From: Oligoflexus sp.
GTDB taxonomy: Bacteria; Bdellovibrionota_B; Oligoflexia; Oligoflexales; Oligoflexaceae
DNA: 43,318 bases
Reading direction: 5' to 3'
NCBI GenBank assembly: GCA_041736305.1
Contig: JBGSTX010000005.1
Location: 1-43,318 of the forward strand
The position numbers were made by a program, and so were the translations under genes. The stretch's first letter is position 1; every line of letters starts with the position of its first letter. Under the pieces are notes generated by a model. It was given only the letters and a program-made list of their open reading frames with translations, had not been told where the DNA came from and ran no database searches. Positions 2,740-27,760 of the stretch are shown here, piece after piece.

Positions 2740-3165
2740 GTTTCAGGCTTTCCATGAGCTGAAGAGGCTTGAGCAGGATGAGAGGACAGACTGCAAATGA
2801 TGGAAGTGGACTGGGGAACCAGCAGCCACCATTTGCCTAGAGACGATGAGACAGTAAAACTGAGAATTTCTCTAGGTGCTTAGCTTCAATGTTGGCATCT
2901 TGACCTCCTTTCGCGGCCAGGCTCAGCTCCTGGAGCTGACGCCAGCCATCATTATCTGCCGCCTCTGGGCGAGGACCGTCGGCAAAAGTCTGCCAGGGTC
3001 TCTGTAGTTCTTCGGGCAAAGGCTAAGTTTGCTTGGTCCTTGTCAGAATCGCAGTTCTTACCTGAGAAATCAATTATTCCAGCCAATTGACATCAAAGGG
3101 CAAATTCAAGCCTGCTCAAAAAGTAGAGATCTTCCGCCGATAAAGAAAGATCTTAAGCCTTTTTA

Positions 3166-4092: not shown

Positions 4093-4151
4093 TGAGCTCA
4101 GAGCTTTGGCTTGCAGCTCGCAAGCTATTCTCGAAGCACAGATGCCGATTG

Positions 4152-4214
4152 ATCGAGTAGGAGGGGCTTTCTCCCCGTCCTCTCACACCACCGTACGTAC
4201 GGATCCGTATACGG
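4152..4214 (-). mobile_element. Group IIC intron 3'-end remnant (domain V, domain VI, terminal AT)
   Basis: Minus strand reads CCGTA TACG GATC CGTA CG TACGG TGG TGT GAGAGGACGGGG AGAAAG CCCCTCCT A CTC GAT: a D5 hairpin with CG bulge, a D6 hairpin with bulged A and an AY end. The CGC triad is replaced by GAC and no RT ORF is nearby. Confidence 0.85.
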
Positions 4215-4481
4215 TCTGACGCCGAGCTTTAGCCCCGATTTCCCGGCCCTCGAACGATTGATAAAGTCAATGGCGGGGCCGGCACTCTTAGCTGGCATTA
4301 TCCCAGCGCAGCAGTTAGAAAAAGGGGGGAAAGAGGATTAAAGGACCCATTTTAAACTTGAGGCACTCTAAAAGCTAATCTCTCAAAAGGGTTTCCTTAA
4401 GCACAAATTACTAAATTTTCTCGGCAAACTGCCGACACGCTCACTCGGAGCTACGACCGAATCCTTAAGGGAGAATGCCTC

Positions 4482-5489
4482 GTGGAAACAGATATACAGG
4501 AGATCGGTTTAAAGCAAATTCGGATCTCCAAAGAGGAACTCAGGAATTTTTCTAGCCGCAAACCTTTTTTCGCTCTCCTGCACATCGCTATGGAATGGTC
4601 TTTGATCGTCCTAGCCGCGTATCTCACCAATCTTTATTTTAACGTATTCTTTTATATCCTCTGCGTTGTTTGGATTGGAGCGCGACAGCATGCTTTGGGC
4701 GTCATTATGCACGATGCTGCGCATGGCAATCTCTTCGCTTCGCGCAAGTTGAATTACGTGATCTCCGATCTATTCCTAGCCTGGCCACTCCTCGTGGCCA
4801 CGCAGACCTACTGGCAAGGACATTCCGTTCATCACAGGCATACAAAAAACGATAAGGATCCGGACTGGGTCGCTCAGAAGGATATCCCTATCTACCAGCT
4901 GCCTCGAACCCGCTGGCAGTTCTTTACGCACTTTATGAAAGATATGACCGGCATTGGCCTCTTTCAGCTCATACAGTTGTTTATTTATCTAGGGTCGCGC
5001 CCCAAGGATCCATCGATCATCGTCGACAAGAAACAGCTCTACACCTACCGAGCGCTGCGCATTTCCTACTACCTCATTATATTTAGCGTAGTCCACTATC
5101 TCTCAGCCTGGAAAATTCTGCTGATGTTTTGGTTCGTGCCCATGATCACCTGGTTTAAATGGGTGGTCTACCTTCGCTCGTTAGGCGAGCATCATGGTTT
5201 TGACGGCACGGGACCCCTAGGTCATACCCGGACCACAATTGTGTCTGTATTCGGTAAATTCTTTATTACACCGAAAAATATCAACTTCCACATGGAACAC
5301 CATATCTATCCCACAGTGCCTTTTTTCCGTCTACCGGAGGTGCATAAGCTCCTGATGGAAAATCCTGAGTACCGCAGCAAAGTGAAGGTCAATCAGGGTT
5401 TTTGGAGCGTTCTGAACGATGCAGTTCATTATCAGCCTCAGGTTTTAGCAGGAAGCGCACATGAGGTTCCGCGTGGATCGGATCGATAA
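4482..5489 (+). CDS. Membrane fatty acid desaturase-family protein (RtxC/rhizobitoxine-FADS-like subgroup suspected)
   Basis: His boxes HDAAH, HSVHHRH, EH and HMEHH, several TM segments, QHALGVIMHDAAH signature. Overlaps the oleC start by 29 nt. Confidence 0.9.
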   Translation: METDIQEIGLKQIRISKEELRNFSSRKPFFALLHIAMEWSLIVLAAYLTNLYFNVFFYILCVVWIGARQHALGVIMHDAAHGNLFASRKLNYVISDLFLAWPLLVATQTYWQGHSVHHRHTKNDKDPDWVAQKDIPIYQLPRTRWQFFTHFMKDMTGIGLFQLIQLFIYLGSRPKDPSIIVDKKQLYTYRALRISYYLIIFSVVHYLSAWKILLMFWFVPMITWFKWVVYLRSLGEHHGFDGTGPLGHTRTTIVSVFGKFFITPKNINFHMEHHIYPTVPFFRLPEVHKLLMENPEYRSKVKVNQGFWSVLNDAVHYQPQVLAGSAHEVPRGSDR

Positions 5490-7128
5490 TTTTGCTCTTT
5501 ATCTGAAAATGATGGCCGCTGGGTGTCCGCATCAGCAGGTCGTTATCTTTCCTGCTGCCCGGCAGAAGAACGGGCGGATCGCCTATACCCATCTCACTTA
5601 CCAACAGCTTGATGAACTGAGCGATCACGTAGCACAGCGGCTTTTGGAATGCGGGTTTTTTCCTGGAATGCGGACCGCTTTTATGGTGAAGCCATCGCTG
5701 GAGTTTTTTGTTCTGAGTTTCGCTCTCCTTAAAGCTGGCATCGTTCCAGTGCTAGTAGATCCGGGCATCGGCCTGAAGAATGTGCGCACTTGCCTCGCCA
5801 TGGCCGATGCTGAGGCTTTTATCGGCATACCTGCGGCCCATATCGCCAGGCATCTCTTTCGCTGGAAGGGAGCTGGTTGGAAGGCACTGCTCAACATAGG
5901 CTACAGGCATTTTCCAGGGACAATCTCATATAAAAGCCTGCTGGCACCCGTTGAGAATAAGCAGCCTCTGATGAACACCGTGCAGGAAGATACGGCGGCA
6001 ATTCTTTTTACTTCAGGCAGTACCGGCTCACCCAAACCGGTGGTGGCGACCCACGCAAATTTCGTGAGCCAGCTGCAAATCATGCGCGAAAACCTCGCCA
6101 TACAGCCTGGAGAATATGACCTCTGTACCTATGCGCCCTTCGCTCTCTTTGCTCCTGCCCTCGGTTTGACGACAGTGATTCCAGACATGAACTTCAGTAA
6201 GCCCGCCGAGGTTGACCCCTGGAAAATCAAAGAGGCGATCGATGATTTTGGCATCAGAAACATGTTCGGTTCACCGGCTCTCATGAAGACCGTGAGTCGC
6301 TGTGCAGAGGCCAATAATTGGCAATTCCCCTCCCTTAAAAGACTTATTTCGGCAGGTGGGCCCGTTCATTCCGATATTATAGTGAGCTTTCTGAAGTCAT
6401 TGTCTCCGGAGGCTGAATTCTTTACAGCCTATGGAGCCACCGAAGCTATGCCTGTGGCAATGGCAGAAAGTCGCCAGTTGCTGGGAGAAGAGCGCCTTCG
6501 TCACGCCAGCGGACATGGTCTCTGCGTCGGTCGCTTGGCAGCGGGGCTTGTAAAAATCTTGCGCGTTAGCGAGCTCCCGCTCAGTTCTTTGCGCAACGAG
6601 GATATCCTGGGCCCCTATGAAATTGGGGAAATATTAGTCAGCGGACCGCACGTGACCTGGGGCTATTATAAAATGGACGCCGCCAACGAGCTCTCAAAGG
6701 TTCGCGATGAAAACGGCACAATCTATCATCGGATGGGCGATGTCGGCTATCTGGATGCAGAAGGGAAGCTCTGGTTCTGCGGTCGTAAATCTCATCGGGT
6801 GCAGCGGAGCGAGGGCGATCTTTATTCCATTCCTGTGGAAGCAGTCTTCGACACCCACCCTCTAGTTGCGCGTACCGCATTGGTGGGATTGGGCCAGGGT
6901 CCCGATCAAATTCCCTGTCTTTGTATCGAAAGCAAACGGGACTTGAGCGCTGAAGAAAAGACCAGCCTCGTAAAGGAGCTGAAGCTCATCGCCAGTCGAT
7001 ACAAGCAGACGCAAAGTCTCGACAAGTTCCTCTTTCATCCGGCCTTTCCGGTCGATATTCGTCACAACGCGAAGATTCATCGTGAGTCTCTGAAGCTCTG
7101 GGCCGAAGGCCTTCTAGCGGATCGCTGA
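5461..7128 (+). CDS. oleC: OleC-family beta-lactone synthetase (AMP-dependent ligase)
   Basis: FTSGSTGSPK P-loop, YGATEAMPV, HRMGDVGY, WFCGRKSHRV, VDPGIG and the OleC-typical C-terminal FPVDIRHNAKI. No fused N-terminal alpha/beta-hydrolase (555 aa). Confidence 0.9.
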   Translation: MRFRVDRIDNFALYLKMMAAGCPHQQVVIFPAARQKNGRIAYTHLTYQQLDELSDHVAQRLLECGFFPGMRTAFMVKPSLEFFVLSFALLKAGIVPVLVDPGIGLKNVRTCLAMADAEAFIGIPAAHIARHLFRWKGAGWKALLNIGYRHFPGTISYKSLLAPVENKQPLMNTVQEDTAAILFTSGSTGSPKPVVATHANFVSQLQIMRENLAIQPGEYDLCTYAPFALFAPALGLTTVIPDMNFSKPAEVDPWKIKEAIDDFGIRNMFGSPALMKTVSRCAEANNWQFPSLKRLISAGGPVHSDIIVSFLKSLSPEAEFFTAYGATEAMPVAMAESRQLLGEERLRHASGHGLCVGRLAAGLVKILRVSELPLSSLRNEDILGPYEIGEILVSGPHVTWGYYKMDAANELSKVRDENGTIYHRMGDVGYLDAEGKLWFCGRKSHRVQRSEGDLYSIPVEAVFDTHPLVARTALVGLGQGPDQIPCLCIESKRDLSAEEKTSLVKELKLIASRYKQTQSLDKFLFHPAFPVDIRHNAKIHRESLKLWAEGLLADR

Positions 7129-7129
7129 G

Positions 7130-8170
7130 CTACCAGTCTATTCCTAGCATCATGCAGTTCAGTCCAGAGCCAAAGCCCAGCATCGCGACTCTATCTCCCT
7201 TTTTTAGAAAACCATTTTCATGGGCCATGGCTGCCGTCAGAGGCAGCGAAACGCTGGCGATATTGCCGAGTTTTGGGTAGGTCATATAATCTTTGTGATC
7301 GGGAATATTTAGAGCATTCAGAAAGGTTTTGCGATGCATGATACCAACTTGATGGGAAATGATCTTGTCGACATCGTCTTGAGTCCAGTTCATCACTTTT
7401 AAGAAATTATGCCAAGTCTTGATGCCTAGTGCTACACCATGATTGAGCACGCCGACTGAGTCGGTGAGAAAAGATTGTTCAAAAAACGTTTGCTTCACGC
7501 GGTTGAATTCCCAGGTACAGAGCTGGTTCCGGGAGCTGTCGTTTCGCACCGAGCCGCCGAGCAGACGATGACCGCCTCCCAAGTTAGGATCTCGGCTGAG
7601 GATGATAGCGGCGGCTCCAGAGCCCCCCGTGAAGATCGCCAAATTCCATTTAAAAAACTCGATATCGTGATGCTTGAGGAACCTATGCAAAGCGTCCTCG
7701 TTGAGATCGCGAGACGATTCGCAGCAGACCACCATACCCATACGGGCATGACCGAGAGCGAGTCGGTTGGCTACCTCAAGGATTCCTGTCAAAGCCCCCA
7801 TGCAGGCGTTGCTGACATCGAAGAGGATAGCCTCCGGACCCACACCGAGTTCAGCAGCGACCCTACAGGCCGTGGCGGGTTCTTCGCCGTCGCGACAAAC
7901 CCCTGTGTAAAGCAGAACATCGATTTCGCTGGCATTTACATTGAGAGCGGCCAAGGCCTTTCTCCCAGCGGATATAGCTCCGTCACTGACTTTAAAGCCT
8001 TTGGGCCACCATCGTCTCTCCTGTATGCCCGTCATCGCTTCCAGTTGGCCGTTGGGAAAATGGAGCGCTCTAAATACCGGTTGCAGAGCCTCTTCGAGGG
8101 TATCTGTCGTTATCATCTCCTCGGGAAGCTCGTAACTAAAGGCATTTAGGTAGACATCGTTGTAAAGCAT
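7130..8170 (-). CDS. oleA: OleA-family thiolase (head-to-head Claisen condensation)
   Basis: GIQERRWW, VCRDGEEPATA (catalytic Glu), FDVSNACM (Cys), HQVG (His), GNIASVSLP (Asn), C-terminal GFGSGLNCMMLGIDW. Confidence 0.92.
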   Translation of the reverse strand: MLYNDVYLNAFSYELPEEMITTDTLEEALQPVFRALHFPNGQLEAMTGIQERRWWPKGFKVSDGAISAGRKALAALNVNASEIDVLLYTGVCRDGEEPATACRVAAELGVGPEAILFDVSNACMGALTGILEVANRLALGHARMGMVVCCESSRDLNEDALHRFLKHHDIEFFKWNLAIFTGGSGAAAIILSRDPNLGGGHRLLGGSVRNDSSRNQLCTWEFNRVKQTFFEQSFLTDSVGVLNHGVALGIKTWHNFLKVMNWTQDDVDKIISHQVGIMHRKTFLNALNIPDHKDYMTYPKLGNIASVSLPLTAAMAHENGFLKKGDRVAMLGFGSGLNCMMLGIDW

Positions 8171-8303
8171 CTTGTTTCATTCCTAGCCGGAAATTTCAAA
8201 AACTTATGGATTTGCACCCATCCTATCAAGTCCGCGGTCTCGAGCGATAGCTCATTGATAGCGTTTAGAGATTTTGCTATTTTGAAGCATCAAGAATGAA
8301 AGG

Positions 8304-9656
8304 ATGCAGATGACTCTAATATCTGGCCCCCGATCGACCGTCCCGAGTCTCCTGCGACTTGCTTTCGGAAAAAACATCACCATCTGGAGCATCCTTAGAG
8401 ATTTTCAAAATAGGTTCGGCGATATCGTCAAGGTCACACTGCCTTTTAGAGAGCCTCTGCTGCTCGTCAGCGATCCGGATATCGCCGGGAGAGTTCTTAT
8501 AGGTTCCGAAAAAATTTCGAGCAAAGGCATGATCGTCGAACGCATGAAGATTTTTTTAGGTGATGGACTTTTCACCTCGAAAGGTGATAAATGGCGCTCC
8601 CGACGCCGCTTGCTCAACCCCATGTTTCACAGTTCGCAGATAGATACCCTCGCTGTACTTATCCAATCAGAGATTCTGCAGATGTGTGATCGCTGGGAAA
8701 GTCAGTTAGGCAGCAGCGATATCATCGACCTTTCCGACGAAATGGCCAAACTTACTTTCTCTATTATCAGTAAAGCTATGTTCAGCACAGAGCCTTCCAA
8801 AAAAACGCACGCTCTCCACAAACTCATGGCTGATGCGCAGCGGATGGCTAACGCCTTCAATTTTGCGCCCTTTCTGCTGCCCTTATGGGTCCCTACGCCT
8901 TTCAATCTCAAGGTGCGGAGGATATCCAAACTTTTCGATTCCATCACCAATGAGCTCATTCAGGAGCACAAAAGCCATCCCGATCGCTATAAAGACCTCC
9001 TGACGCTTCTGCTCAACAGTCGTGATGCCGATACCGGCGCCTCTCTGAGTGAACTTGAGATTCGCGATGAGCTGGTCACTACTCTCATCTCTGGTCACGA
9101 AACTACCTCGTCGACGCTGTCTATGGGATTAGAAGCTCTTTCTCACGAGCCCCAGGTTCTTGCCAAAATGCGCGCCGAATATGAAGGTCTTGATGAGAAC
9201 AACCCCCTCAATTATAAGTCTTTGAAGTATAGTAAGCAGGTGATAAACGAGATCATTCGGCTTTACCCGGCTATTTGGGCTATAGAACGCGTGATGTTAG
9301 AAGATCTTGAGGTCAAAGGCTTCACTCTAAAGAAGAGCGATCACCTTCTGCTGCTCCCCTATCTAACGCACAGACACCCTAAACTCTGGGATAATCCAGA
9401 CTCCTTCGATCCTGAGCGCTTTTCTGAAGTACGCAGCCAGGGTCGGCATCCTTTCGCATACTATCCCTTCGGCGGTGGCGCACGAGCCTGCATTGGCGTG
9501 GGACTGGCGAAAATGGAAATTGAGATCTGTCTCTGGCAAATCGTGAAGCGTTTCGACCTGCTTCCTCTGGAAGGTTTTCACTATACCCCCATGGCGCGCG
9601 TGACCACTTCACCACAACCAAATATTAAACTCCGCATCGCTAAGCGTTCGCCCTAG
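8304..9656 (+). CDS. Cytochrome P450
   Basis: I-helix SGHETT, K-helix EIIR, FDPERF, heme motif FGGGARACIG; 450 aa. Confidence 0.97.
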   Translation: MQMTLISGPRSTVPSLLRLAFGKNITIWSILRDFQNRFGDIVKVTLPFREPLLLVSDPDIAGRVLIGSEKISSKGMIVERMKIFLGDGLFTSKGDKWRSRRRLLNPMFHSSQIDTLAVLIQSEILQMCDRWESQLGSSDIIDLSDEMAKLTFSIISKAMFSTEPSKKTHALHKLMADAQRMANAFNFAPFLLPLWVPTPFNLKVRRISKLFDSITNELIQEHKSHPDRYKDLLTLLLNSRDADTGASLSELEIRDELVTTLISGHETTSSTLSMGLEALSHEPQVLAKMRAEYEGLDENNPLNYKSLKYSKQVINEIIRLYPAIWAIERVMLEDLEVKGFTLKKSDHLLLLPYLTHRHPKLWDNPDSFDPERFSEVRSQGRHPFAYYPFGGGARACIGVGLAKMEIEICLWQIVKRFDLLPLEGFHYTPMARVTTSPQPNIKLRIAKRSP

Positions 9657-9666
9657 CGCGCGGCCC

Positions 9667-10659
9667 CTAGCTGTGGAGACTCTTTTTGAGTCGCGCAAAG
9701 CCCTCTTTCATGCTGACTCTCGCTTCGTAAGCAAGATCACGTTGGGCTGCAGCGGGATTATACCAGTGGGCTGTGCTCATCTGCGCCACCACAAAGCGCG
9801 TTAGAATCGGCTCGCTCTCAATTCTGAGAGTTCTGTAGACGGTCTCCAGAAGGCTAGCGAGTGCATACGCGACCCGAACATCGACATGTTTCGAAACGGG
9901 GGCTAGGCCCGCGGCGTCGAGGATACTGTTGATAATATCCCGCATAGGCCAGGGTTCGGCATTGCCGATGAAGTAGGCTTTGCCTCCGATCGGAGAGCCG
10001 GGTGCAAGACGATCGAAGGCACATACATGCGCCCACGCAGCATTTTCAACATAGACAGCATCTATCAGCTGCGTGGCTTCTCCCACAAGACGAAGGCGAC
10101 CTTTTCTCGCTCTATCGATAATGCGCGGGATCAGATGCGGATCACCCGGTCCCCAGATTAAATGGGGACGCAGAGCGCAGGTCGCTAGGTTTTTGTCGTT
10201 GGCTTGCAGAATCAACTGTTCAGCCTGCGCCTTAGTTTTTGGATAAGCCGCTAGAAAAGATGCAGGATAAGGCACAGACTCATCGACGTTCTCCTGATCT
10301 TTCCCATCGAAGCTAACGGATGGAGAGCTGGTATATACCAGCTGGGAGATTCCAAGTTCACGGCAGGCCCGAAGCACATTCTCGCTGGCTTGCACATTAG
10401 CGGCATAATAGGCATGCAAAGGGCCCCAGGCCCCGGCCTTAGCCGCTACATGGAATACGGCATCGACGCCGCGAAAGGCTTCCCTTACGGATTCATAATC
10501 GCCAAGATCAGCTTGAACGCAGCTGACTCCCATCGCCTCGAGATGAGGATAGCGGGCGCGGTTGATGCTGCGGAGCTGGTAGGGACGCGCCTTGAGTTCC
10601 TGCAGTATAGCAGTACCAAGAAAGCCGCCTCCTCCGGTCACCATTATAGTCTTACTCAC
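9667..10659 (-). CDS. oleD: OleD-family 2-alkyl-3-oxoalkanoate reductase (extended SDR, 3-beta-HSD-like)
   Basis: TGGGGFLG NAD(P) motif, HVAAKAGAWG, YTSSPSV, YPKTK, LRPHLIWGPGDPH. GTG start at 10659 overlaps the pfaC TGA (GTGA), so the first 70 codons of the listed ORF are probably not translated. Confidence 0.9.
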   Translation of the reverse strand: MSKTIMVTGGGGFLGTAILQELKARPYQLRSINRARYPHLEAMGVSCVQADLGDYESVREAFRGVDAVFHVAAKAGAWGPLHAYYAANVQASENVLRACRELGISQLVYTSSPSVSFDGKDQENVDESVPYPASFLAAYPKTKAQAEQLILQANDKNLATCALRPHLIWGPGDPHLIPRIIDRARKGRLRLVGEATQLIDAVYVENAAWAHVCAFDRLAPGSPIGGKAYFIGNAEPWPMRDIINSILDAAGLAPVSKHVDVRVAYALASLLETVYRTLRIESEPILTRFVVAQMSTAHWYNPAAAQRDLAYEARVSMKEGFARLKKSLHS

Positions 10660-13600
10660 GAGTTCGCTGCTTCTATCGACAGATGTTCTACTTTGTAGAT
10701 AGGAAGACCATCGCAGTAGAAAGTTCCCAGCGCTTCCAGTCTGCGATCGTCTGCCTTGCGGATTTGCAGAGCCATGCGGATCTCCTTGCTGTCGAGCCGC
10801 ACTTGGGCGCGATAGACCCAAGACTGCTTCGAACCCAGGGCCAGGCGCCAGCGCGGAACCTCTGGCCATCGGCGGTTAGCTTCTGCCATCAGCAGCTGCA
10901 GAAGCCCTTCGACTCCGAGCGAGCCAGGCATAATAGGATCTTCGAAGAAATGAGCGCGATAGTACCACTCGTCGGGATCTACCGCCTTGGCGCCGTAAAC
11001 CTTCTCGCCTGCGCTTTCCCAGGTTTCGACCATGCAGATCATCCCATGCGGGAGTGGAGAGATTACTGGATAAGGCTTTTCGATTCGCTGCTCTTCCCAG
11101 AGAGGAACGCCATGCAGAGGAAGCTGCTTGTTCAGAGATTCCCCCGCGAACATCCCAAACACAGTGCTGCCGCGATAAACTTCTCCCGACGCGTTGAAGA
11201 CCCGGAAGGCGAAATCATGGATGATGAAATCCCCACTACTGGTCATCTTCGTTACCGCAACTTCGATGGAGAGTCGTCCCGAGCCCCTGCGCACATCCTG
11301 GGAAAGTGTACCATCACCCGACAAATTCCGCAGTTTTAGGTCCTTCGGTGACTGCAGCGCGGTACCCATGTAGGCTGATAGAAAGCCGCAGGGTTGCAAA
11401 GCTATTTCCAAGAGAAGGGCCAAGGGCAAGGCGTCGTTGTAGAGTGGCCAGAACCAGGCATCGTCAGGGAGTTCATAATGAGCCAAGAGTCTTGTCCCTA
11501 CATGGGCTTCCATGAAGGGTCCTTCGACCCAGGCGACCGAATCAAGGAAACGGAAGGGTGGCCGAGGTAAACGAGGCATCTTCCGCGCTGCACCGCGATT
11601 AAAGATACTGTAATGCGGTCCAAAGCATTCAGATGGATCACCTTCGGACAAAGCCGCGACCTGTTCTGCCGTGAAACTCATCTTCTTTTGACTTTTCGAC
11701 CAGATTCCTTCCAGTTTCGACTGGGTGAAATGTGGGATTTTGAGACTCATGTCGATGATATCGACGATAGGTTTACCGTCGGCGTACATGAGAGCATCGC
11801 AGATTACGTAGGCGTCTGGTCCGTAACCGATTTCTTTGATCTCGATCTCATAGGTCGCCTTCTTCGTAGTCGCAAGCACCTGGCCCCGGCATTTCAACTG
11901 CGACCAGATACCCGGTACGGGAACAAAATCCTGTTCGCCGCTTTCCCCGACCCAACCTGAACGCATGAGAAAAACGCGCAGCGTATGGAGGCAGCACTCA
12001 TACATGAGCGTGCCGGGCATCACCTGGTCGTCAATGAAGTGACAAATAAGGAACCAGTTTTCGGGGTGCATGTCCGCTTCCCCAATGACTTTGCCGATTC
12101 CATAGCGTCCTCCGTTCGGGTCGATCTCCAAGATGCGGTGAACCAGTTTCATATCGCCCCCCGGTAGCGACTTCGGCTTCTCCAGGGGGAGTCCGGCGAA
12201 TTCAGCACCAAAACTCGCGACGTAGTCACCTCGCCGAAGAGCCTCAATCTGCATGTCGCTGAGGCTTTCCTTCCGCAAGGGTACAAACGGTGTATAGTTC
12301 CCGCTAACCTTACCGTGACCACCTTTTTCCTGCATCTTGCTGCGCTTGACACCCCGCCCTTCATTTAAAGCCGTTTCTGTGAAGAATCCAGCGCATCCAT
12401 CAACCATACTCATCATGGGCTTGTCATCGATGAAGGCCTCGAAGCTGAACTGGAAGAAGAGGGTCCCGTTCTGCTCGAAGAAGCGTTTTATCTCAATTTC
12501 GTAGCGAACCATCTCCCCGGCCCGCGGCAGCTCACGGAAAAAGCAGACCCGCGCATCGAGCAGACGGTACCCGGCATTACCTCGGGTTTGGAAATCTGAG
12601 CCGAGGAAAGCCGACAGCATGAGGTCGCCCTGCCCCGACTCGATGCAGATACTGGTCGGCATTACCTGGTCTTCAAGATACCAGGCGTCGGCATAGACAT
12701 CGTGTTCGGTGGTCATTTTGCCTGGACCCATGCTTTTCGATTCGCCTTCGATTTTCATCACCCGATGACAAAGCAGCAGTCGGTTGGCAGGCAGGCGCAC
12801 ACGCTTACTAAAACTATCGATCTCTGTGAAGTCCGGACCGAAAACATTGGCGATTTTGCCGTTAGCAAATTCCCGGCATGCGGCGTAGTCGTAGAGTGGG
12901 GGAGTTTTGTTGAAAGGCTCGTGGACCCAGGAGGAAGATTGCGATGGGTTTGTCCGATTTAGAAGCTCCAGAGCCGTGGCCAAAATACTTTGACCTTGCT
13001 CTACAAAGGCCACATATTGCTCTTGTATGGCGATGGCATCGAGCTGATCGCGTAAGAGATTGCTCAGTATCTGCTGTGCTGCAGAGCCTCTAACGGGTGC
13101 TTTATCCGCTGCTACGGGCGGTACCTGAGGCTCATCCGGCTCTGGCTCGGGCTTCTGCAGGAGCTGATTTAAAGGCAAGAGCACTTGATCCTTTCGAGGG
13201 ATCTGATAACTCTCACCTTCTACCTGTGAAGATGTGGAGACAGTCAAAGCTCCCGTCTGTTGCCATTTGACAGAGAGATCATGCTCACCTTTCAAAGTAT
13301 AAGAAGCTCGTCCGGATTCGCCTTTTTCCCAGATTTTGAGCAGCGAATGCAAGCCATGAGCCGCGCCTCGATAGGCGGAGCTGACGATGACTTTCTGGGC
13401 TGTCGCAGCTACTCTCTGCGTATGCGAAGGAATGATTTCTGACCATGCTGATCCATCGAGACTCAACCCCTTCTCGCCTTCCAAAAAAGCTTCGAGAGTT
13501 ACAGCCACGGGCAGACCTAATTCAAGGGCAAGACGCGCATCCATCAGGAGCAGCGCAACAGAACAGTCGGGTGCTTCCAGCCACTGTGTTCCGAAGCGCT

Positions 13601-15425: not shown

Positions 15426-15443
15426 TTTGCACCTAAGCTTCTT

Positions 15444-17780: not shown

Positions 17781-17801
17781 TTTTTTCTGCTTGCTTCTCC
17801 T
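17745..17801 (-). promoter_or_regulatory. Putative programmed -1 ribosomal frameshift signal
   Basis: AGGAG (17801-17797), 10 nt, A AAA AAA (17786-17780) in the 0 frame, 6-nt spacer GTCTAA containing the 0-frame stop, hairpin GCCCTGAG-AAG-CTCAAGGC (17773-17755), possible outer helix GTCTA/TGGAC. Confidence 0.65.
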
Positions 17802-20800
17802 ATGCCCTGCTGCTGGGAGCTAGTTTCAAGAAAACGCAGAAGCTCACTGAGGGTGCGCACATTTTCGACGGGCACATCCCGGATTTCGGGAATCTTGCTC
17901 GTGAGGCTGGCCATGATTTCGACTCTTTTTATGGAGTCGATGCCTAGATCTGCTTCGAGATCCATACTCGGGTCCAATACCTGCTGCGGATAGCCGGTCT
18001 TGTCGGCGATGACTTGCCAGAGAAGAGACTTAAATTTTGGGGTCTGCGCCTCGGGTACTGATAGGCCTGCCCTTGCGCCGAGATGGGCAATGATATCAGA
18101 GATCTTTTGCATTTCACTGAGGCTTTGCTCTTGTAGCTGGGCCTCTTTGAATGCATTACGAAGCTCAGAGAAAATTTCAACCTTCTTGATCGAGTCGATG
18201 CCAAGATCGCTTTCAAGCTCCATATCATCACTGAGAGTATGGATAGGAAAACCGGTTTTTTCGGCGATAGTCTGTAGAATCTTCGTGCGAACGTCGGGAT
18301 TGCTGTCGGCCGGACTTGCCGCTGGAGCTGCTGACGCGACTAGGCTTGCTGCGAGCGCCTGAGTCGCAGTCGATCCCGTGAACTGAATGAGATCTGCTAT
18401 GGTCTGGGCTTCACGAATCGGACCTGCTGCTACGTCTAGCTCGGGAAAAGCCTTGGAAATTGCTGAAAGGATTTCCACTTTTTTGATTGAATCGATGCCT
18501 AAATCGCTTTCGAGCCCCATGTCTTCGGAGAGGGTAGTGACGGGAAATCCCGTGGCGTCGCTGATAAGCTTGAAGATCAACCGACTACTGGCTGCATTCG
18601 CTGGCGCTGCCGCGCTTGTGCCATGTGCATAGCTTTTTTGCTCGAGCAGAGAGTTGGTGTTTGAAAGAGCATGGCTATTGCGATCTGCGGGCACGATGCC
18701 GAAATTTGCTGCATAAGCGGATGCTGCCTGCACTGCCTGCGCCGCTTGAGCCGCTTGAGCCGCTTGAGCTGCTTGTGCTGCTTGTGCTGCTTGTGCCGCC
18801 TGCGCTGCCTGAGCTGCCTGCGCCGCTTGATCTGATTTCGCTACAGGGAGGCCTTGTGCTGAGTAGGCCGAAGCTAAAGGAGATGCATAAGACGAAGCTG
18901 CTTGAGATCCAGATCTACCAGCTCCTGCCGGCCCTTGCTGCGCGCTATTCGTCAGGGCCCCTGTCTGCTTCGAAAATGCAAGTTCAGCTTCGACGGTACG
19001 AGCAAACGCCGACTGGCGCTCCATATCTCTTGTAGCCTTGCTCAAGTCCATACGGCTCAGCGTGGAAGCGACCAGGCCTTCGCCGCCCCTAAGTGCATCG
19101 TGAATAATCTGCTGGAACTGGCGCTGATTCGCGAGGAACTGTGCCTGCACCTCAGCGGCTTTCCTCTGAGTCTCCTGCATATCGAGGAGGAATTTTTCAA
19201 GCACCGTCACATTTATTTCTGTGGACATTGTTTGAACCCTTTGTGTGTTATGCGAAGCCTTTGGCATTTCATATCTACGGTGATGAGCAAGACCTGGGAC
19301 TGCTACGGGTCCGGGCTCAGGTGTTGCGAGGTGGCCCAATACCGCCTCAAACCCAGGCTTTAATTCTGGTCCCGCTACAGGACTTACGCGCGATTCTAAC
19401 CCAGCTTGTGAAGCAGCAGAGCCAATCTTCCGCTCAGGCTTGGCCACTGCCGCTCTTTCCGACTCTAATGCAGGCACTTTTCTACTAGTGTCAGAACGGT
19501 AATTGGCACCCGTCAGCCAGACCTTAAAAGCATCTTTCTCCGCCGCCACGATCTCGACACCAGGATCCCAACGCACCAGATCCAAGTCCATGCCTCGAAC
19601 GGCAAGTTCACCAACCAACGCCGCAAGGCCCAGCATGCTGTCGCGTTTGTCGCTATCCAGCGAAAGAGCCTGTTTGTCACAGGCCTTCAAGAGTCGACTC
19701 AACTTCTGTCCCGGGCCTATTTCAACGAGAGTGATTTCCCGATCCTTGCGCACAGCCTGCAGCATCTCGTGAAAGCGAACCGGCATGGCTAGCTGGGCCG
19801 AGAGCGTTTTCTGGAGGCCTTCAGCAGGGTATGCTTTGGCCAGAAGGTTACTGTAGACAGGGACTTCGGGCTTCTTAAAGTGCACGTGCTGGCCCAACCA
19901 ACGATCGAAACCACTTTCCGCGGCGCTCACATATTCAGAGTGAAAAGCTGTACTCACATTGAGGACAGCCGACGAAATATTCACCTTCGCGAGCTGCTCG
20001 ACTAGAACATGAATTTCCGCCGTCGCGCCGCCGACCACTACCTGCTCAGGAGAATTAAAATTTACTATCTTCAGGCTGCTTGCACTCGCTCTGATCAAGT
20101 CTTCAACGCGTTCTTGAGAAGCCAGGATCGCCAGCATAGAACCACCTTTGCTTCCCAGCTGCTCAATTAGCAGACCTCGTTGATAAGAAGCGCGCAGCGT
20201 CTCCTCCAGTGACATGACCCCGGCCGCGTACAGAGCTAGCAGTTCACCATAGGAATGTCCAGCCGTGACAGACGGCCGTATACCGAAGCTCTTTAAGATC
20301 GAAATCACAGCTGTACCGACGCAACCCAACGCTAGCTGCGTGATCCGAGTCGCCGTCAGCCGCTGAGAAAATAACTCCTTATCGTTGCCAAAGGCCTGCG
20401 GAGGATAAATATAGTCCATCAGCGAAGGACCATTACTTTCATGCTCTTCGAGAATCCGCGAAGCCAGAGACAAACTCTCCAAAGCCTCAGGAAAACTTAC
20501 CATCAGCTCCCGCAGCATACCGGGTGCTTGTGAGCCCTGGCCTGCAAAAATCATCGCCAACTGAGCCTGCGGTGCCGCCTGCGAATAGGCTACCCCGTTG
20601 ACGGACACACCTTCCTCTACCGCCTTTTTTGCCTCAGTAAGCCGCTGTTTCAGTTCTGGAAGTCCTTTGGCCCAGATTGCGAGCCGATGGGCGTGCTTAG
20701 CGGCGAACTTTCGTCGAGACTGGCGAGCTATAGTCTGCGCATGGTAGGTGCATGCCGGGGTCTCCAAGAGCTTAGATGCAGCGAGAAAAGAACTCATAAG

Positions 20801-22270
20801 AGCTTCTCTCGAATCTCCCGAAAAACTTAGCAAGAAGAGATCCTGATTCCAAAGTCGAGGTTTGTCGTCGGCTTTGTATTCTTCAAGCACGCAGTGATAA
20901 TTGCTTCCACCAAATCCAAAAGCGCTAACCGCTGCATAGCGAGGCTTGCCAAGTCGTGGAATCCAGGGTCGAGGCCTATCAAGCAATTGAAAAGGTCCCC
21001 CCACCAGATGGGGGTGAAGCCGCTGCACTTTAATAGTCGGAGTCTGGATTTTTTGATGCAGAGCCATCACGCACTTGATAAGCCCAGCTGCCCCAGCGGC
21101 GGCCTTGGTATGTCCAATCTGGGATTTTACAGATCCGATCACACAGGACTTTCTATTATGCTGGCCAAATATCTTGGTCAGCGACTCGGCTTCGATACCA
21201 TCTCCTACCTTGGTCCCCGTCCCATGCGCTTCCACTAATTCAATGGCAGCTGAATCGATATCTGCATCGTCGTAGGCTCTTTGAATCGCCTTGATCTGAC
21301 CTTTGACTGCCGGGGTATAGATGGCTTTACCCTTACCGTCGCTCGCTGACCCAAAGCCCCGGATGACAGCATAGATCTTGTCTCCATCGCGCTCCGCGTC
21401 CTCGAGTCGCTTCAGGATTACGACGCCCAGGCCTTCACCCAGAACCGTGCCATCGCCGTCTGCATCGAAGGGCCGGGAGTGACCGCTCGGTGAGAGAGCA
21501 GGAGTTTTACTGAAGCACATGTACATAAAGATGTCGTTGAACGTGTCCATTCCACCGGTGATCACCATATCGCAGCGACCCGTCTGGAGTTCCATGACCG
21601 CGACCTGAATCGCCGCCAATGAACTCGCACAGGCCGCATCGACGACCGAATTACTGCCGCCGAGATTGAGGCGGTTCGCAATGCGCCCAGCGACGACATT
21701 ACCTAAGAGTCCTGGGAAGGATGCTTCCTGCCAAGAGACATAGGAATTGGCGATTTCGTCCATCACCTCTTTGGCGACGTCGTCGGCTACTCCAGCATTT
21801 TTTAGGGCTTTTTTCCACTTTGGATGCCCGAGGCGGGCGCCGAGCGGAATCACTAGCTCGAGAGTGCCTGTCACACCGATAATGCAGGAAGTCCGATCAC
21901 GATCGAAATTGGCATCCGGCCCGTAGCCAGCATCGACAAGAGCTTCATGGGCGCAGACCATGCCCAGCAGCTGCGTGGAATCGGTCGCTTCAAGCGTGTG
22001 GGGCGCAATTCCATAGCGTAGGGGTTCGAAGGCGAAGGGCTTTAGAAATCCACCCGTCTGCGAATAGGTACGATCGGGAGTCTTGGGATCGGCGTGAAAG
22101 TATTCTTCCGGACTCCAATGGCTCAGTGGAATAGGACTTATAGCATCCTTCCCCTGAATAATGTTTCTCCAGTATTCTTGGAGGTTGGCTGCCTCGGGAA
22201 ACATGCACGACATACCGATGACTGCGATCCCATTCTTCGACCTATCCCCAACCCTCCCTCGCTTGTTCAT
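17774..22270 (-). CDS. pfaA: PUFA synthase PfaA N-terminal part: KS, MAT, linker, 3 x ACP
   Basis: KS DAACASSL, EAHGTGT, GHTKAAAG; MAT FAGQGSQ, GHSYGE, AFHS; three LE(S/A)DLGIDSIK(K/R)VEI ACP motifs. ATGA overlap with the pfaD stop. Confidence 0.95.
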   Translation of the reverse strand: MNKRGRVGDRSKNGIAVIGMSCMFPEAANLQEYWRNIIQGKDAISPIPLSHWSPEEYFHADPKTPDRTYSQTGGFLKPFAFEPLRYGIAPHTLEATDSTQLLGMVCAHEALVDAGYGPDANFDRDRTSCIIGVTGTLELVIPLGARLGHPKWKKALKNAGVADDVAKEVMDEIANSYVSWQEASFPGLLGNVVAGRIANRLNLGGSNSVVDAACASSLAAIQVAVMELQTGRCDMVITGGMDTFNDIFMYMCFSKTPALSPSGHSRPFDADGDGTVLGEGLGVVILKRLEDAERDGDKIYAVIRGFGSASDGKGKAIYTPAVKGQIKAIQRAYDDADIDSAAIELVEAHGTGTKVGDGIEAESLTKIFGQHNRKSCVIGSVKSQIGHTKAAAGAAGLIKCVMALHQKIQTPTIKVQRLHPHLVGGPFQLLDRPRPWIPRLGKPRYAAVSAFGFGGSNYHCVLEEYKADDKPRLWNQDLFLLSFSGDSREALMSSFLAASKLLETPACTYHAQTIARQSRRKFAAKHAHRLAIWAKGLPELKQRLTEAKKAVEEGVSVNGVAYSQAAPQAQLAMIFAGQGSQAPGMLRELMVSFPEALESLSLASRILEEHESNGPSLMDYIYPPQAFGNDKELFSQRLTATRITQLALGCVGTAVISILKSFGIRPSVTAGHSYGELLALYAAGVMSLEETLRASYQRGLLIEQLGSKGGSMLAILASQERVEDLIRASASSLKIVNFNSPEQVVVGGATAEIHVLVEQLAKVNISSAVLNVSTAFHSEYVSAAESGFDRWLGQHVHFKKPEVPVYSNLLAKAYPAEGLQKTLSAQLAMPVRFHEMLQAVRKDREITLVEIGPGQKLSRLLKACDKQALSLDSDKRDSMLGLAALVGELAVRGMDLDLVRWDPGVEIVAAEKDAFKVWLTGANYRSDTSRKVPALESERAAVAKPERKIGSAASQAGLESRVSPVAGPELKPGFEAVLGHLATPEPGPVAVPGLAHHRRYEMPKASHNTQRVQTMSTEINVTVLEKFLLDMQETQRKAAEVQAQFLANQRQFQQIIHDALRGGEGLVASTLSRMDLSKATRDMERQSAFARTVEAELAFSKQTGALTNSAQQGPAGAGRSGSQAASSYASPLASAYSAQGLPVAKSDQAAQAAQAAQAAQAAQAAQAAQAAQAAQAAQAVQAASAYAANFGIVPADRNSHALSNTNSLLEQKSYAHGTSAAAPANAASSRLIFKLISDATGFPVTTLSEDMGLESDLGIDSIKKVEILSAISKAFPELDVAAGPIREAQTIADLIQFTGSTATQALAASLVASAAPAASPADSNPDVRTKILQTIAEKTGFPIHTLSDDMELESDLGIDSIKKVEIFSELRNAFKEAQLQEQSLSEMQKISDIIAHLGARAGLSVPEAQTPKFKSLLWQVIADKTGYPQQVLDPSMDLEADLGIDSIKRVEIMASLTSKIPEIRDVPVENVRTLSELLRFLETSSQQQGIGEASRKKV
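18722..18829 (-). repeat. 12 x 9-bp tandem repeat encoding (QAA)10-QAV-QAA in the PfaA MAT-ACP linker
   Basis: Units CARGCNGCN read directly, varying almost only at synonymous positions. Confidence 0.95.
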
Positions 22271-23877
22271 GAAAAAGACTCCTGAGCTTTTATCAGCTCT
22301 TCACCCGAGCGTGGATCAGTAAGGCCTTCCCAGGCTGGATCGCGAAGCCCCATAAAATTCAGCTGGCGAATTCTCTGCAGGAGCGCGGCCGAGTACATAA
22401 TATTGGCTCCTACTAGGGCCGCCCGCCTTGCCTTCGCGGCTTCGAGCGGACTACCTTTGACCCAAGCATTGAATGCGGCCATAGCCGGGCCACACCAAAT
22501 CTGATAATCAAGCCGACGGCTGCTGTCACCGCGGATTGCCCAATGCGAGGCTTGCCCCAGATAGGAGCGGAAGAGCAAAGCCATCTTGAATTTAGGGTTG
22601 GTCTCAGCCCTTTCTAGCTGGGAGGGATCACGGGCTTGAAAGAAGGCCCTTGTTGAATCCCAGGCTTCCTCGATGCTGCAGCGGAAAAAGCTGGCTTCGA
22701 GCTGCTGCCGCTCTTTCAGCGAAATACCTTCAAGATTGGGATGACTTCGATAAATTTCGTAAAGCTTCTGGGCCCGCATCGGGAACATGGTGCCCTTTTT
22801 AAGCACCTGTAGCTTCACCCCTAGCTCGAACATGTCCGCCGCAGGAGCCATCATAAAATCGCTCTGCTCGGTCTCGGCCAGCATTGCTCGAACTTCATCG
22901 CTAGTGCCGGATTCCACGCAAGCCTGATTGATCGATCCCGTCACAACGTAAGCTGCACCCATAGAAAAGGCAGCCAGCGCCGACTGGGGGGTGGAAATTC
23001 CACCAGCAGCTCCTAAACGGAGCCGGTCCTGATAGTGGTACTCTCGCTCCAGCTGAGCTTTTATCTGCAACATGAGAGGCAGCAAAGTAACGAGAGGTCT
23101 ATTGTCGGTGTGACCTCCAGAATCAGCTTCCGCGGTGAGGTCTTGAGCCATAGGAACGAGCTGGGCCAGCTCAAATTCCTGAGCGGTAATTGCCCCCTCG
23201 GCTAGCAGCGTATCGAGAATAGGCCGGGGTGCGGGTGACCAGAACAAACGGGCAAGCTCGACGCGAGATACTTTCGCAATGATTTTCTGAGGACTGACGA
23301 TGCCACCGCTGCCATCGCGATGAAGGTTCTTTACGCGATAGCGAACCAGGGCCTTGGTGAGGGACATGAAAGCCGAAGCTTCGACCAGATTGACCCTTTT
23401 ATGCAAAAGCAGATCGCAGATCTTATCTTCTACTGCCAGTTCTTGGGGACTATGAATAAAATTCACCGCAAAAGTCTTCGCACCCAGGGCGCTCTGCAGC
23501 TCGTCGATGGCCTTTTCCACAAGACCCAACCCTAGACCGGCGGCGCCGAAAGAAGCAAGCATCCCCTGACTGGCCAGAGCCTTGACCAAGGCAACACTTG
23601 AAATACCATGCGCCATGGATCCTGCCATATAGGGAAGGCTCAGCTGATGGGCATCAGTAAAATGACGATCACCAAGATCTCGAGGATGGATTCTAGGCAG
23701 AAAGATCTGTTTTCTATCCAGTGAGACTTCGAGCTCGTCCTGAATTCTAATAATTGCAGTAGCATTCAGATTTTTCATGGCGTGCAAGTCTTTCGTTGAT
23801 AAGTCACTTGTATATCGGAGATTTATTGGAATAGCTGAGTTGCTAGGCATGAAGTTGAGCTTCTCGCTCGCTCGCAA
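22267..23877 (-). CDS. pfaD: PUFA synthase enoyl reductase PfaD (FabK-like); real start probably a downstream ATG
   Basis: AGSMAHGISS, EASAFM, AKVSRVE, EADSGGHTD, AAGGISTP, TGSINQ, APAADMFELG, DYQIWCGPAM. Confidence 0.95.
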   Translation of the reverse strand: MRASEKLNFMPSNSAIPINLRYTSDLSTKDLHAMKNLNATAIIRIQDELEVSLDRKQIFLPRIHPRDLGDRHFTDAHQLSLPYMAGSMAHGISSVALVKALASQGMLASFGAAGLGLGLVEKAIDELQSALGAKTFAVNFIHSPQELAVEDKICDLLLHKRVNLVEASAFMSLTKALVRYRVKNLHRDGSGGIVSPQKIIAKVSRVELARLFWSPAPRPILDTLLAEGAITAQEFELAQLVPMAQDLTAEADSGGHTDNRPLVTLLPLMLQIKAQLEREYHYQDRLRLGAAGGISTPQSALAAFSMGAAYVVTGSINQACVESGTSDEVRAMLAETEQSDFMMAPAADMFELGVKLQVLKKGTMFPMRAQKLYEIYRSHPNLEGISLKERQQLEASFFRCSIEEAWDSTRAFFQARDPSQLERAETNPKFKMALLFRSYLGQASHWAIRGDSSRRLDYQIWCGPAMAAFNAWVKGSPLEAAKARRAALVGANIMYSAALLQRIRQLNFMGLRDPAWEGLTDPRSGEELIKAQESFS

Positions 23878-23989
23878 AGGCTATGTAGCAGCTATTCTTG
23901 AGAGAATCTCTGCTAAAATTCGCTAAATAGAATTTGCCTAGCTAAATACAGCGAAAAGGTGAGTGGCGGAAAAAAAATGCCGGCGACGT

Positions 23990-26257: not shown

Positions 26258-26301
26258 TCGCTTAACCTTCCTTGCTACTTAAGAACACGAGCCTAAGTCA
26301 C

Positions 26302-26344
26302 AAAAAAAGGTCTAGAGGCTCGTTCCTGGCAGCCAGTAGACCTT
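26302..26344 (-). terminator. Intrinsic terminator after the 467-aa lipoprotein gene
   Basis: Minus strand AAGGTCTA..GGCT..AGCC..TAGACCTT followed by a T run. Confidence 0.6.
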
Positions 26345-26356
26345 GCCTAATTTAAT

Positions 26357-27760
26357 TTAGAACACAAAAGGGGCAAGGGCAGCTGCTACAAAACCGCCGC
26401 CCCACGACTGACCGAGGATACGAGCTGCTTCCTTAACATCGGCAGACGACTTGAGACTGGTGATATAAGGCGACCAGGCTGAAACATTCCAGGCTGTAGC
26501 AGAACCGTAGAGGTAGTTCCGGGCTTTAACGCCATTTATCGAAACGTCTTCCCCTTGCACAAAGCTTGTCGGAAAGAATGCTTTAGCATCTGCAGGAGGA
26601 TTGGTAAAGAATTCCGGGACATTGACCGCAACGCTTTCATTGGTCAGATTGCTGTAAATTTGGGCCGGTCCGGAAACTATAGCCGAACTTTCTTTGAGAG
26701 TTAGACTAATACCGCGCGTTCCAGTCATAATTACGTCGGGACGAAGGGCCCAGAACTCGTCGACCTTACCGCCTAGAGAAGCTTGGCGAGCCGCTACAGC
26801 TTCATAGGTTTTCGAACCGGCTTCGATTGAAGCGCGGACGCTTTGGAGAGCTGCAGCCATCAAAGCCTTGCCATTGCTCTTTATAGTCAGAAACTGAGGG
26901 TATTCATTAATCGCCGAGACGCGCAAGGAGATGGGTGCTCCCTGAACTGACGAAAGAAGGAAACCGTCGACACCAAATATCTTGCCAAGCGAACCTATTA
27001 CAGCGACTGCGTCATTGATATCGTAGGCGCTTACCACGCGGGCGGTGGTCAGATAACTGTTCAGTGTAGCAAGACCAGCATATTTTTCAGCAAGCCCGAT
27101 TTTGGTGAAGCGATCGCGGGGATCTTTAAACGATGCGGTACCGTAAGCAATGCGATGATCCCAGACGACAGGATTGGCATCACTGACGTCTATGGCCGTT
27201 ACATTTTTTATGGTTTTTTCTAGCAGTGGAATGACAATTGTCTCCACCTCGCTCTGGGCATCAGCTACCGACTTGAAAGAATTGGGTTTCGAGGTGCTAG
27301 GCTCAGTAAAATATGCGGTTACGGCCTTCCACTGCGTGGTGGGAAGCAAGATGCTAGTGCTCGCCACCATCTGCTGCACCCCGGTTAAAACGAGGCTATG
27401 GGTTGCATTGTTTTGCTTAAAGAGTGGGGCAGCTCGAAAGACTACAGAACGGAAAGGACGAACCAACAAAGCGTACGATGAAGCTAGTTTCACTTCCGGC
27501 GGTGCAGATGCATAATTAGTCTCGAGCCCCTGAAGGAAGGCTTCAAGTTCGTCTGCTGTTTTAACAGCCAGGAAAGCATCGCGAAATTTCGCGAGACCTT
27601 TAATGTCTGCTTCACTGACTGGACCGGCCTGAGTCTGACTTTCAGATTCAGGGGCGCTTTCACCTGCTGGTTTGCAGGCTGCAAAGAGAAGAAGAGAGCC
27701 GGCAAACGCACCAAGCAAACCTTTATGCACGATACCCCTTGAGACCAGAACACGATTCAT
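26357..27760 (-). CDS. Hypothetical lipoprotein (467 aa, apparently helical)
   Basis: GGAG SD, signal ending LFAAC, long uninterrupted ORF; no family recognised. Confidence 0.8.
   Translation of the reverse strand: MNRVLVSRGIVHKGLLGAFAGSLLLFAACKPAGESAPESESQTQAGPVSEADIKGLAKFRDAFLAVKTADELEAFLQGLETNYASAPPEVKLASSYALLVRPFRSVVFRAAPLFKQNNATHSLVLTGVQQMVASTSILLPTTQWKAVTAYFTEPSTSKPNSFKSVADAQSEVETIVIPLLEKTIKNVTAIDVSDANPVVWDHRIAYGTASFKDPRDRFTKIGLAEKYAGLATLNSYLTTARVVSAYDINDAVAVIGSLGKIFGVDGFLLSSVQGAPISLRVSAINEYPQFLTIKSNGKALMAAALQSVRASIEAGSKTYEAVAARQASLGGKVDEFWALRPDVIMTGTRGISLTLKESSAIVSGPAQIYSNLTNESVAVNVPEFFTNPPADAKAFFPTSFVQGEDVSINGVKARNYLYGSATAWNVSAWSPYITSLKSSADVKEAARILGQSWGGGFVAAALAPFVF

Follow-up and report, generated by a model that had tools for sequence, protein, structure and literature searches.

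In the Ole pathway, as described in three reports (PMC7064751; PMC6463001; bioRxiv 10.1101/856955), OleA carries out a condensation, OleD a reduction, OleC the closure of a beta-lactone and OleB its decarboxylation; OleBCD has been reported as one complex (PMC6463001). In Shewanella oneidensis and Photobacterium profundum, pfa genes and oleABCD together lead to a C31:9 polyunsaturated hydrocarbon, OleA taking the polyunsaturated chain made by the Pfa synthase (PMC6463001). Beta-lactones have been predicted as the products of oleACD clusters that include a cytochrome P450 gene but no oleB, the criterion in print for this prediction being a whole genome without oleB (PMC7064751). Here we analyse a cluster of pfa and ole genes that lacks oleB, located on a contig (C102) from a genome bin of Oligoflexus sp. 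The window, that is the whole stretch of DNA that was analysed (43,318 nt), is the whole of this contig, and the cluster lies between positions 4482 and 27760 (Table 1). Very probably, we are looking at a hot-spring Oligoflexus-like bacterium, of a little-studied lineage akin to predatory bacteria, that carries a second, remodelled pfa-ole copy beside a normal hydrocarbon-type cluster.

As in S. oneidensis and P. profundum, where pfa and ole genes can adjoin, the window links a Pfa synthase to OleA, OleD and OleC. Unlike the clusters reported there, it has no oleB, pfaB or pfaE, its oleD is joined to pfaC, its pfaA is out of frame, and it adds a diiron enzyme, a P450 and a lipoprotein-MMPL pair. 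The nltABCD (nocardiolactone) and lstABCD (lipstatin) clusters likewise have homologues of OleC and OleD, no oleB and adjacent tailoring genes. However, nlt and lst are described as having two thiolase genes, the second without Cys-His-Asn but with Glu, whereas the window has a single complete OleA; and the nlt and lst genomes are given as lacking oleB (bioRxiv 10.1101/856955; PMC7064751), whereas the window's genome has it. The oleA-glycosyltransferase-oleC-P450-oleD cluster of Actinoplanes atraurantiacus resembles the window in its single OleA, OleC, OleD and P450 and in having no oleB within the cluster, but its whole genome is reported to be without oleB and it has no Pfa synthase; its beta-lactone is likewise only predicted (PMC7064751). 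Finally, the canonical cluster of the genus, seen on contigs C184 and C346 of the same bin and in 18 relatives, consists of the same gene families and belongs to the same lineage as the window's. There, however, oleA-oleB-oleC-oleD is divergent from pfaD-pfaA-pfaC and accessory genes are absent; only the window copy is without oleB. The window architecture is a variant within the already known kind of pfa-ole cluster. Our literature search returned no paper on a Pfa-linked oleACD cluster without oleB, nor on two pfa-ole clusters in Oligoflexus; a figure legend in PMC7064751 states that OleA homologues from Oligoflexus showed activity in the screen reported there.

A pfa-ole cluster without oleB

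The window had previously been interpreted from its letters, without database searches, as a candidate polyunsaturated beta-lactone cluster (hereafter the sequence-only reading). The Ole chemistry given in that reading agrees with the three reports cited above, and the tight coupling it had seen from pfaD to oleD proved exact at each junction when read directly: the TGA stop of pfaD overlaps the ATG of pfaA as ATGA (22270-22267), pfaA and pfaC are spaced by 18 nt (between 15444 and 15425), and the GTG start of oleD overlaps the TGA stop of pfaC as GTGA (10659-10656). Moreover, oleC and the desaturase-like gene share an overlap of 29 nt. Pfam and NCBIfam also bore out the gene positions that had been given for a desaturase and a P450 interleaved with the ole genes and for an MMPL gene upstream. 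On one point the reading was mistaken: pfaA, taken as a single gene of the coupled row, actually consists of two overlapping frames, broken at a run of seven A. The other parts of a Pfa-type synthase are present, namely PfaC, with ketosynthase (KS), chain-length-factor (CLF)-like and two dehydratase (DH) regions, and the PfaD enoyl reductase. Neither a PfaE phosphopantetheinyl transferase nor a PfaB acyltransferase was found in the window with Pfam and NCBIfam; two ACPS-family candidates lie elsewhere in the genome (on C116 and C108), and in the stretches fetched, the canonical clusters of the genus likewise have no pfa genes beyond pfaD, pfaA and pfaC.

In relatives, OleB is a haloalkane-dehalogenase-like hydrolase encoded by an open reading frame (ORF) between oleA and oleC. 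The window holds no alpha/beta-hydrolase, just as the sequence-only reading had stated: none of the 39 PF00561 matches of the genome falls on C102, and searches for an OleB remnant by tblastn with seven cluster-embedded OleBs and by an OleB profile in six frames gave only noise (E > 0.3). A 308-residue ORF at 3166-4092, between the lipoxygenase and desaturase-like genes, matches no Pfam or NCBIfam family and does not resemble OleB. OleC is not an OleBC fusion either; it has 555 residues with an AMP-binding domain only and no hydrolase domain.

OleC homologues were present in all 13 same-genus genomes; of the 60 relatives searched, 32 had such a homologue (33 of 61 with the own genome included), and among the 14 genomes of the genus only the own genome has two olefin-type OleC copies. 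The comparison of synteny that the sequence-only reading had proposed shows that the loss of oleB from the cluster is derived: oleA-oleB-oleC-oleD is kept in 18 of 18 relatives fetched at genus, family and order level, mostly divergent from pfaD-pfaA.

Added tailoring and export genes

The genes for tailoring (diiron protein and P450) and for export (lipoprotein and MMPL protein) are intact and unique to the window cluster. Indeed, the desaturase-like, P450, MMPL, lipoprotein and lipoxygenase genes were found in the flanks of none of 151 other OleC loci. The diiron desaturase/hydroxylase-like protein contains the His boxes HDAAH, HSVHH and HMEHH; its best NCBIfam match, GntB hydroxylase, stays below the cut-off at 150 bits, and its closest relatives are at most 31% identical in the family and 41% identical among 5.8 billion proteins. 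The P450 has the haem motif FGGGARACIG, and its closest relative in the family is 41% identical.

On the export side, the MMPL assignment is weak in Pfam (21.8 vs 20.5 bits) but clear in Atlas (0.98 to MMPL clusters); a match to the NCBIfam HpnN-like family, at 51 bits, is far below cut-off, and no MMPL homologue was found in 21 same-family genomes at E <= 1e-20. The N-terminus of the 467-residue protein ends ...LLLFAAC, which we take to be a lipobox. This protein has no Pfam or NCBIfam match and three homologues (35-47% identity) among the 5.8 billion proteins. Its AlphaFold model (predicted local distance difference test score 77) had no match in the Protein Data Bank at E <= 0.001 with Foldseek, the best VIA-align Z of 7.5 is within the range of common helical arrangements, and its Atlas matches are to unnamed lipoprotein-like clusters only (best 0.90). 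In three of three same-order genomes inspected, a lipoprotein homologue (25-29% identity) is directly followed by an MMPL homologue, and the pair has the appearance of a portable module for lipid export.

Such lipoprotein-MMPL pairs occur in another family of the same order (L251, at G044:C77 4841-12098, L252 and L253; here and below G, C and L are our handles for genomes, contigs and loci). These pairs adjoin an AMP-binding-UbiA fusion, a GNAT gene and a DUF3419 gene, and may belong to an unrelated lipid pathway with the same export module. Outside positions 4482-27760, about 2.3 kb from the cluster, lies a lipoxygenase gene, which has three paralogues on C136, C144 and C90 (38-48% identical). 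A link to Pfa products is conceivable, since lipoxygenases act on polyunsaturated chains.

Two clusters of different descent in one genome bin

On C184 (L178:8098-17845), oleA-oleB-oleC-oleD run from 12837 down to 8098 on the minus strand, with pfaD-pfaA in divergent orientation; the contig ends within pfaA, which resumes on C346 (L179:10071-19269), with its acyl carrier protein (ACP), ketoreductase (KR) and DH domains in one frame, followed by pfaC. Compared with C184/C346, the window proteins are 55% (PfaA 5' part), 38% (PfaA 3' part), 48% (PfaC) and 59% (PfaD) identical, and compared with C184 the identities are 59% for OleA, 50% for OleC and 58% for OleD. The C184 gene adjoining oleD was considered as an MMPL-related exporter and rejected, as it encodes a TonB-dependent receptor.

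In the concordant trees of OleC, OleA, OleD and PfaD, the copies of G012, G010, G005 and G003 form the sister group of the window copy, and the C184 copy groups with those of G009 and G013. In the PfaD tree, the sister group of the window copy also takes in an Oligoflexus sp. metagenome-assembled genome (MAG), with a Shimodaira-Hasegawa-like approximate likelihood-ratio support of 99. In the tree of concatenated OleA, OleC and OleD, the window copy and G012/G010/G005/G003 are united with support of 100/99, and the C184 copy and G009 with 96/94. The window proteins are up to 61-66% identical to the copies of the G010 group; OleC and OleD nest inside the oleABCD-encoded clade of the genus, OleD among the OleD proteins of the genus. 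An approximately unbiased (AU) test of a group chosen after the earlier trees had been seen rejects the window and C184 copies as one clade (log-likelihood difference 107.8, p 1.7e-52), and with it a recent duplication within the genome.

The host itself belongs elsewhere in the genus. The rpoB tree, in which the row for G006 is a wrong ORF and was ignored, places the genome with G013, and the flanking DNA of both C102 and C184 has its best match in G008/G009/G006, not in the G010 group; rpoB and flanks place both contigs in a G009/G013/G008-like host lineage. It is quite improbable that C102 and C184/C346 stem from two co-occurring Oligoflexus-like populations and were binned together by mistake. 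The window's ole and pfa genes do group with a subclade other than that of the host markers, and the bin is made of 392 contigs (5.02 Mb, with an estimated completeness of 92.7% and contamination of 2.66%). Yet the GC content and tetranucleotide use of C102, C184 and C346 are within those of the bin, C102 ranking 10th of 223 contigs in closeness to the centroid, the flanks of C102 and C184 share their best matches as just described, and the hydrolase adjoining the cluster is 89% identical to that of G009. The simplest reading is one host, with a native cluster and a second one that is either an old paralogue or an acquisition from a congeneric lineage. We are thus confident, short of certainty, that the window contains an accessory, remodelled copy of pfaD-pfaA-pfaC and oleABCD, acquired by transfer or by ancient duplication and kin to a different congeneric subclade.

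A putative pathway to a beta-lactone-type lipid

Since this origin, the cluster has very probably lost oleB, had its oleD joined to the end of pfaC and its oleC coupled to the diiron gene, and gained the P450 and the lipoprotein-MMPL export pair. In the resulting pathway, the Pfa synthase would build a polyunsaturated acyl chain, OleA would condense two chains head to head, OleD would reduce the 3-keto group and OleC would close the beta-lactone. In the absence of a decarboxylase of its own, the cluster would then stop at a beta-lactone or an oxidised derivative; the P450 and the diiron enzyme would do the tailoring, and the lipoprotein-MMPL pair the export. The exported, oxidatively tailored, polyunsaturated-fatty-acid-derived beta-lactone of the sequence-only reading gains from the loss of oleB in the cluster and from the intact tailoring and export genes, and loses from the genomic oleB, the pfaA frameshift, the OleC changes and the lack of a second example, all described below. 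We therefore put forward a non-olefin, beta-lactone-type lipid as the end product only tentatively, as a possible rather than a probable outcome; an olefin made with an OleB acting in trans, or a decaying copy, is nearly as likely.

A bolder version of this proposal, which we hold with little confidence, would see in the window an olefin pathway turning into a natural-product pathway. Following a transfer between congeners, the loss of oleB and the recruitment of oxidases and an exporter would yield an exported polyunsaturated beta-lactone or, if OleC no longer lactonises, a mycolate-like 2-alkyl-3-hydroxy acid or ester, and the poly-A tract in pfaA would be a phase-variable switch.

A possible role of OleB in trans

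Several findings, given in this and the next section, weigh against a beta-lactone-type product. First, the absence of OleB holds for the window cluster but not for the genome. A whole-genome search for oleB, which the sequence-only reading had proposed, detected an intact gene at C184:10883-11818 on the minus strand, one half of the outcome that the reading had named as speaking against its own proposal. OleB proteins of relatives match C184:10907-11953 with up to 62% identity, and the C184 protein shares 62% identity with the OleB that an Oligoflexus sp. MAG encodes within its cluster. It matches PF00561 with 110.7 bits, has the HDWGG motif and the His, and keeps 42 of 42 near-invariant positions (at least 97% conserved in 68 OleB sequences). 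The same genome encodes an intact OleB, which would act on this class of substrate, and it is not the oleB-free genome on which the prediction of beta-lactones is based in print. Moreover, that the two clusters share a cell at all rests on binning.

The C184 OleB could decarboxylate the polyunsaturated beta-lactone of the window cluster in trans, giving a second hydrocarbon, possibly desaturated or oxidised. We find this possible, if somewhat unlikely. Besides the preserved C184 enzyme, it would fit the descent of the window OleA, OleC and OleD from the olefin-type lineage of the genus and not from the nlt/lst type, and the loss of one redundant gene after the gain of a second cluster is a simple event. 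Dispersed ole genes are also common: among the 86 OleC loci flanked by 3 kb or more on both sides, 66 have an OleB next to OleC and 20 have none adjacent. Were OleB shared between the clusters, however, the same redundancy should extend to OleC and OleD, both of which have been retained with their conserved sites; a membrane hydrocarbon would have no need of the P450, the diiron enzyme or the MMPL-lipoprotein pair, which are unseen in the other OleC neighbourhoods; and OleBCD is described as one complex (PMC6463001), whereas the window OleC and OleD have diverged from those of C184 to the identities given above. A complex prediction for the window OleC and the C184 OleB gave no answer (score 0.00, in a run with no controls) and weighs neither for nor against binding.

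OleB and OleB-less pathways can also occur side by side in this genus. The congeners G003, G005 (two copies) and G010, which have the canonical oleB, carry in addition separate clusters of the nlt/lst type without OleB (Table 1). These contain a FabH-like gene with Cys, His and Asn and a second FabH-like gene without them in which the Glu is kept; their OleC-like and OleD-like proteins are 33-36% and 29-32% identical to those of the window, and the clusters differ from the window cluster. No nlt/lst-type cluster was found in the own genome. Since clusters with and without OleB coexist in the genus, an oleB elsewhere does not by itself exclude an OleB-less pathway. In G003, the nlt/lst-type cluster is preceded by a GNAT-CN_hydrolase gene (46% identical to window 28757-30331) and a P450 gene.

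Altered OleC, a broken pfaA frame and possible decay

The second group of findings concerns the state of the genes. The window OleC matches the NCBIfam families NF045786 (olefin beta-lactone synthetase) and NF045785 with 572 and 557 bits, both below their cut-offs, and PRK09274 with 636 vs 478; its core adenylation residues are invariant in our alignment (A1). It has, however, the changes G193P, Y196A, P225A, A300G and P323A at positions kept by 120-122 of 122 other OleCs. At window 6037-6048 (OleC residues 193-196), the P-loop reads TSGSTGSPKPVVATH where 120 of the 122 have PKG..Y; the own C184 OleC has PKA there. The motif TSGSTGxPKG, which we take to be the P-loop, is altered by G193P from PKG to PKP. 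From these substitutions, the window OleC may be impaired or altered. The five changes were considered as a signature shared by OleCs that work without OleB and rejected as such, as they are absent from 15 OleCs without adjacent OleB, except for one P225A.

In PfaA, the domains KS-AT-ACPn-KR-DH (AT, acyltransferase) are all present, yet they are split over two overlapping frames and do not form one ORF. A -1 shift at the run of seven A (A7), or one more A in the run (A8), restores the frame. A motif scan finds three GIDSI ACP motifs and the AT motif GHSYG in the 5' part; the 3' frame has its first own start codon only at 17393, and homology begins at about 17801. With A8, PfaA would read ...RKKSLSPEKLKAELDLSQVGCWKLEA, in agreement with ...KKKS...VSCWKLKA in relatives. 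In five of five in-genus sequences that cover this linker (L130, L131, L132, L031 and the own C346 copy), an in-frame run of ten A (A10) encodes KKK after the last PfaA ACP, and the run persists between copies with as little as 38-50% identity. Slippage is likely in a tract of this kind, which could serve as a switch. One public DNA run, likely the source and labelled as a hot-springs metagenome, holds the window stretch, and no RNA run is listed as holding it. An independent Logan assembly of the likely source run yields a contig with the same sequence throughout 17000-18600, at a depth of about 8; the A7 state is therefore not the quirk of one assembler, the contig resting on the same sequencing data as the window assembly. 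RNA folding in the 90 nt downstream of A7 was no better than in shuffled sequence (z = -0.91). With pfaA out of frame, the pathway would be off or low unless slippage restores the frame.

The architecture also stands alone. The best match to the window OleC in 185,579 GTDB species genomes is 59% identical, from an Oligoflexus sp. MAG, and the best in metagenome contigs 49%; as no second example was found in these data, no selection for the OleB-less form can be shown. In the concatenated tree, the end branch of the window copy measures 0.89 against 0.12-0.23 in its sister copies, 4-7 times longer, and branches of this length fit relaxed selection as well as new function.

These observations raise the prospect of a redundant cluster on its way to being lost, with OleA and OleC drifting and no product being made now. 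The frameshift, which lies in a mutable homopolymer and reads the same in two assemblies, the loss of oleB and the long end branches would all be expected of such a copy, as would an OleC with the third-highest count of conserved-position changes among 97 sequences, the P-loop Gly included; furthermore, only one of the 14 genomes of the genus has two olefin-type copies. We nevertheless consider decay unlikely. Every ORF but pfaA is open, and 92-100% of near-invariant positions are kept at about 60% overall identity. Taking positions at least 97% conserved elsewhere, OleA keeps 45 of 48 (n = 37), OleC 60 of 65 (n = 97), OleD 29 of 29 (n = 76) and PfaD 135 of 139 (n = 11). Since conserved sites are mostly kept, the window copy is not an old pseudogene. 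OleA, the P450 and the diiron protein have their catalytic residues, and the overlapping start and stop junctions are preserved; as for the single frameshift, seen at about 8x depth, it could have arisen recently, vary within the population or be reversible. In OleA, Glu97, Cys123, His273 and Asn303, aligned with the Xanthomonas campestris OleA structures, are all in place, and presumably represent the Cys-His-Asn triad and the Glu of the second subunit. These roles are supported by the literature (bioRxiv 10.1101/856955).

Features of the window and its flank

The coordinates of the features are collected in Table 1. A promoter and terminator scan of window 2000-10800 gave nothing above shuffled expectation. 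Beyond the cluster, a GNAT-CN_hydrolase fusion (28757-30331) is 86-89% identical to its counterparts in G009 and G008 and 44-48% identical to those of six other congeners. Its synteny allowed no insertion boundary to be placed: the orthologues in G009 and G008 adjoin no other window genes, and because no neighbours of this gene are conserved, the region is highly rearranged. Further on, of the proteins encoded at 31622-33010 and 34549-35802, one matches the 'transglutaminase elicitor' family PF16683 (73 bits), a mainly oomycete family, and the other has a Cel124-type C-terminal domain; both are unusual candidates for secreted enzymes in the window flank.

Table 1. Features of the window, with related clusters of congeners in the last row.
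Feature	Position	Strand	Evidence or remark
Lipoxygenase, outside 4482-27760	304-2175	-	PF00305 176 bits
FA_desaturase-family, membrane diiron desaturase/hydroxylase-like protein	4482-5489	+	PF00487 123.5 bits
OleC beta-lactone-synthetase homologue, 555 residues	5461-7128	+	AMP-binding domain only
OleA thiolase, single gene, homodimer type	7130-8170	-	174 bits to X. campestris OleA structures (3ROW and others)
Cytochrome P450, convergent with oleD	8304-9656	+	PF00067 280.6 bits
OleD reductase	9667-10659	-	NF042422 421 bits, best family, below 580 cut-off
PfaC: KS, second KS-like (CLF) region, two FabA-type dehydratase domains	10656-15425	-	Pfam/NCBIfam, motif scan
PfaA, both frames together	15444-22270	-	Pfam/NCBIfam domains
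pfaA 3' frame, KR-DH	15444-17819	-	Stop-to-stop ORF; TIGR02813 positions 1907-2581 matched
A7 homopolymer breaking the pfaA frame	17780-17786	-	Frame comparison with homologues
pfaA 5' frame, KS-AT-3xACP	17774-22270	-	Pfam/NCBIfam domains; TAA stop at 17776-17774
PfaD enoyl reductase	22267-23877	-	TIGR02814 604.5 bits vs 449.25 cut-off
MMPL/RND-family membrane transporter, 755 residues	23990-26257	-	Pfam MMPL 21.8 bits vs 20.5 cut-off
Predicted lipoprotein, 467 residues, first gene of the minus-strand row	26357-27760	-	Lipobox-like N-terminus
nlt/lst-type clusters of congeners	L236 (G003:C42:12000-31900) 3867-12933; L237, L239 (G005); L238 (G010)		

Implications

For the prediction of beta-lactone pathways, the absence of oleB from a cluster, seen in 20 of the 86 OleC loci, is not sufficient, and the whole genome needs to be searched. 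Should the window cluster be active, it would represent the first Pfa-fed OleACD pathway to end in a non-hydrocarbon, a long polyunsaturated beta-lactone or a related lipid. If this is true, a pathway for a membrane hydrocarbon could be converted into one for a secreted metabolite by the loss of one gene and the gain of a few others.

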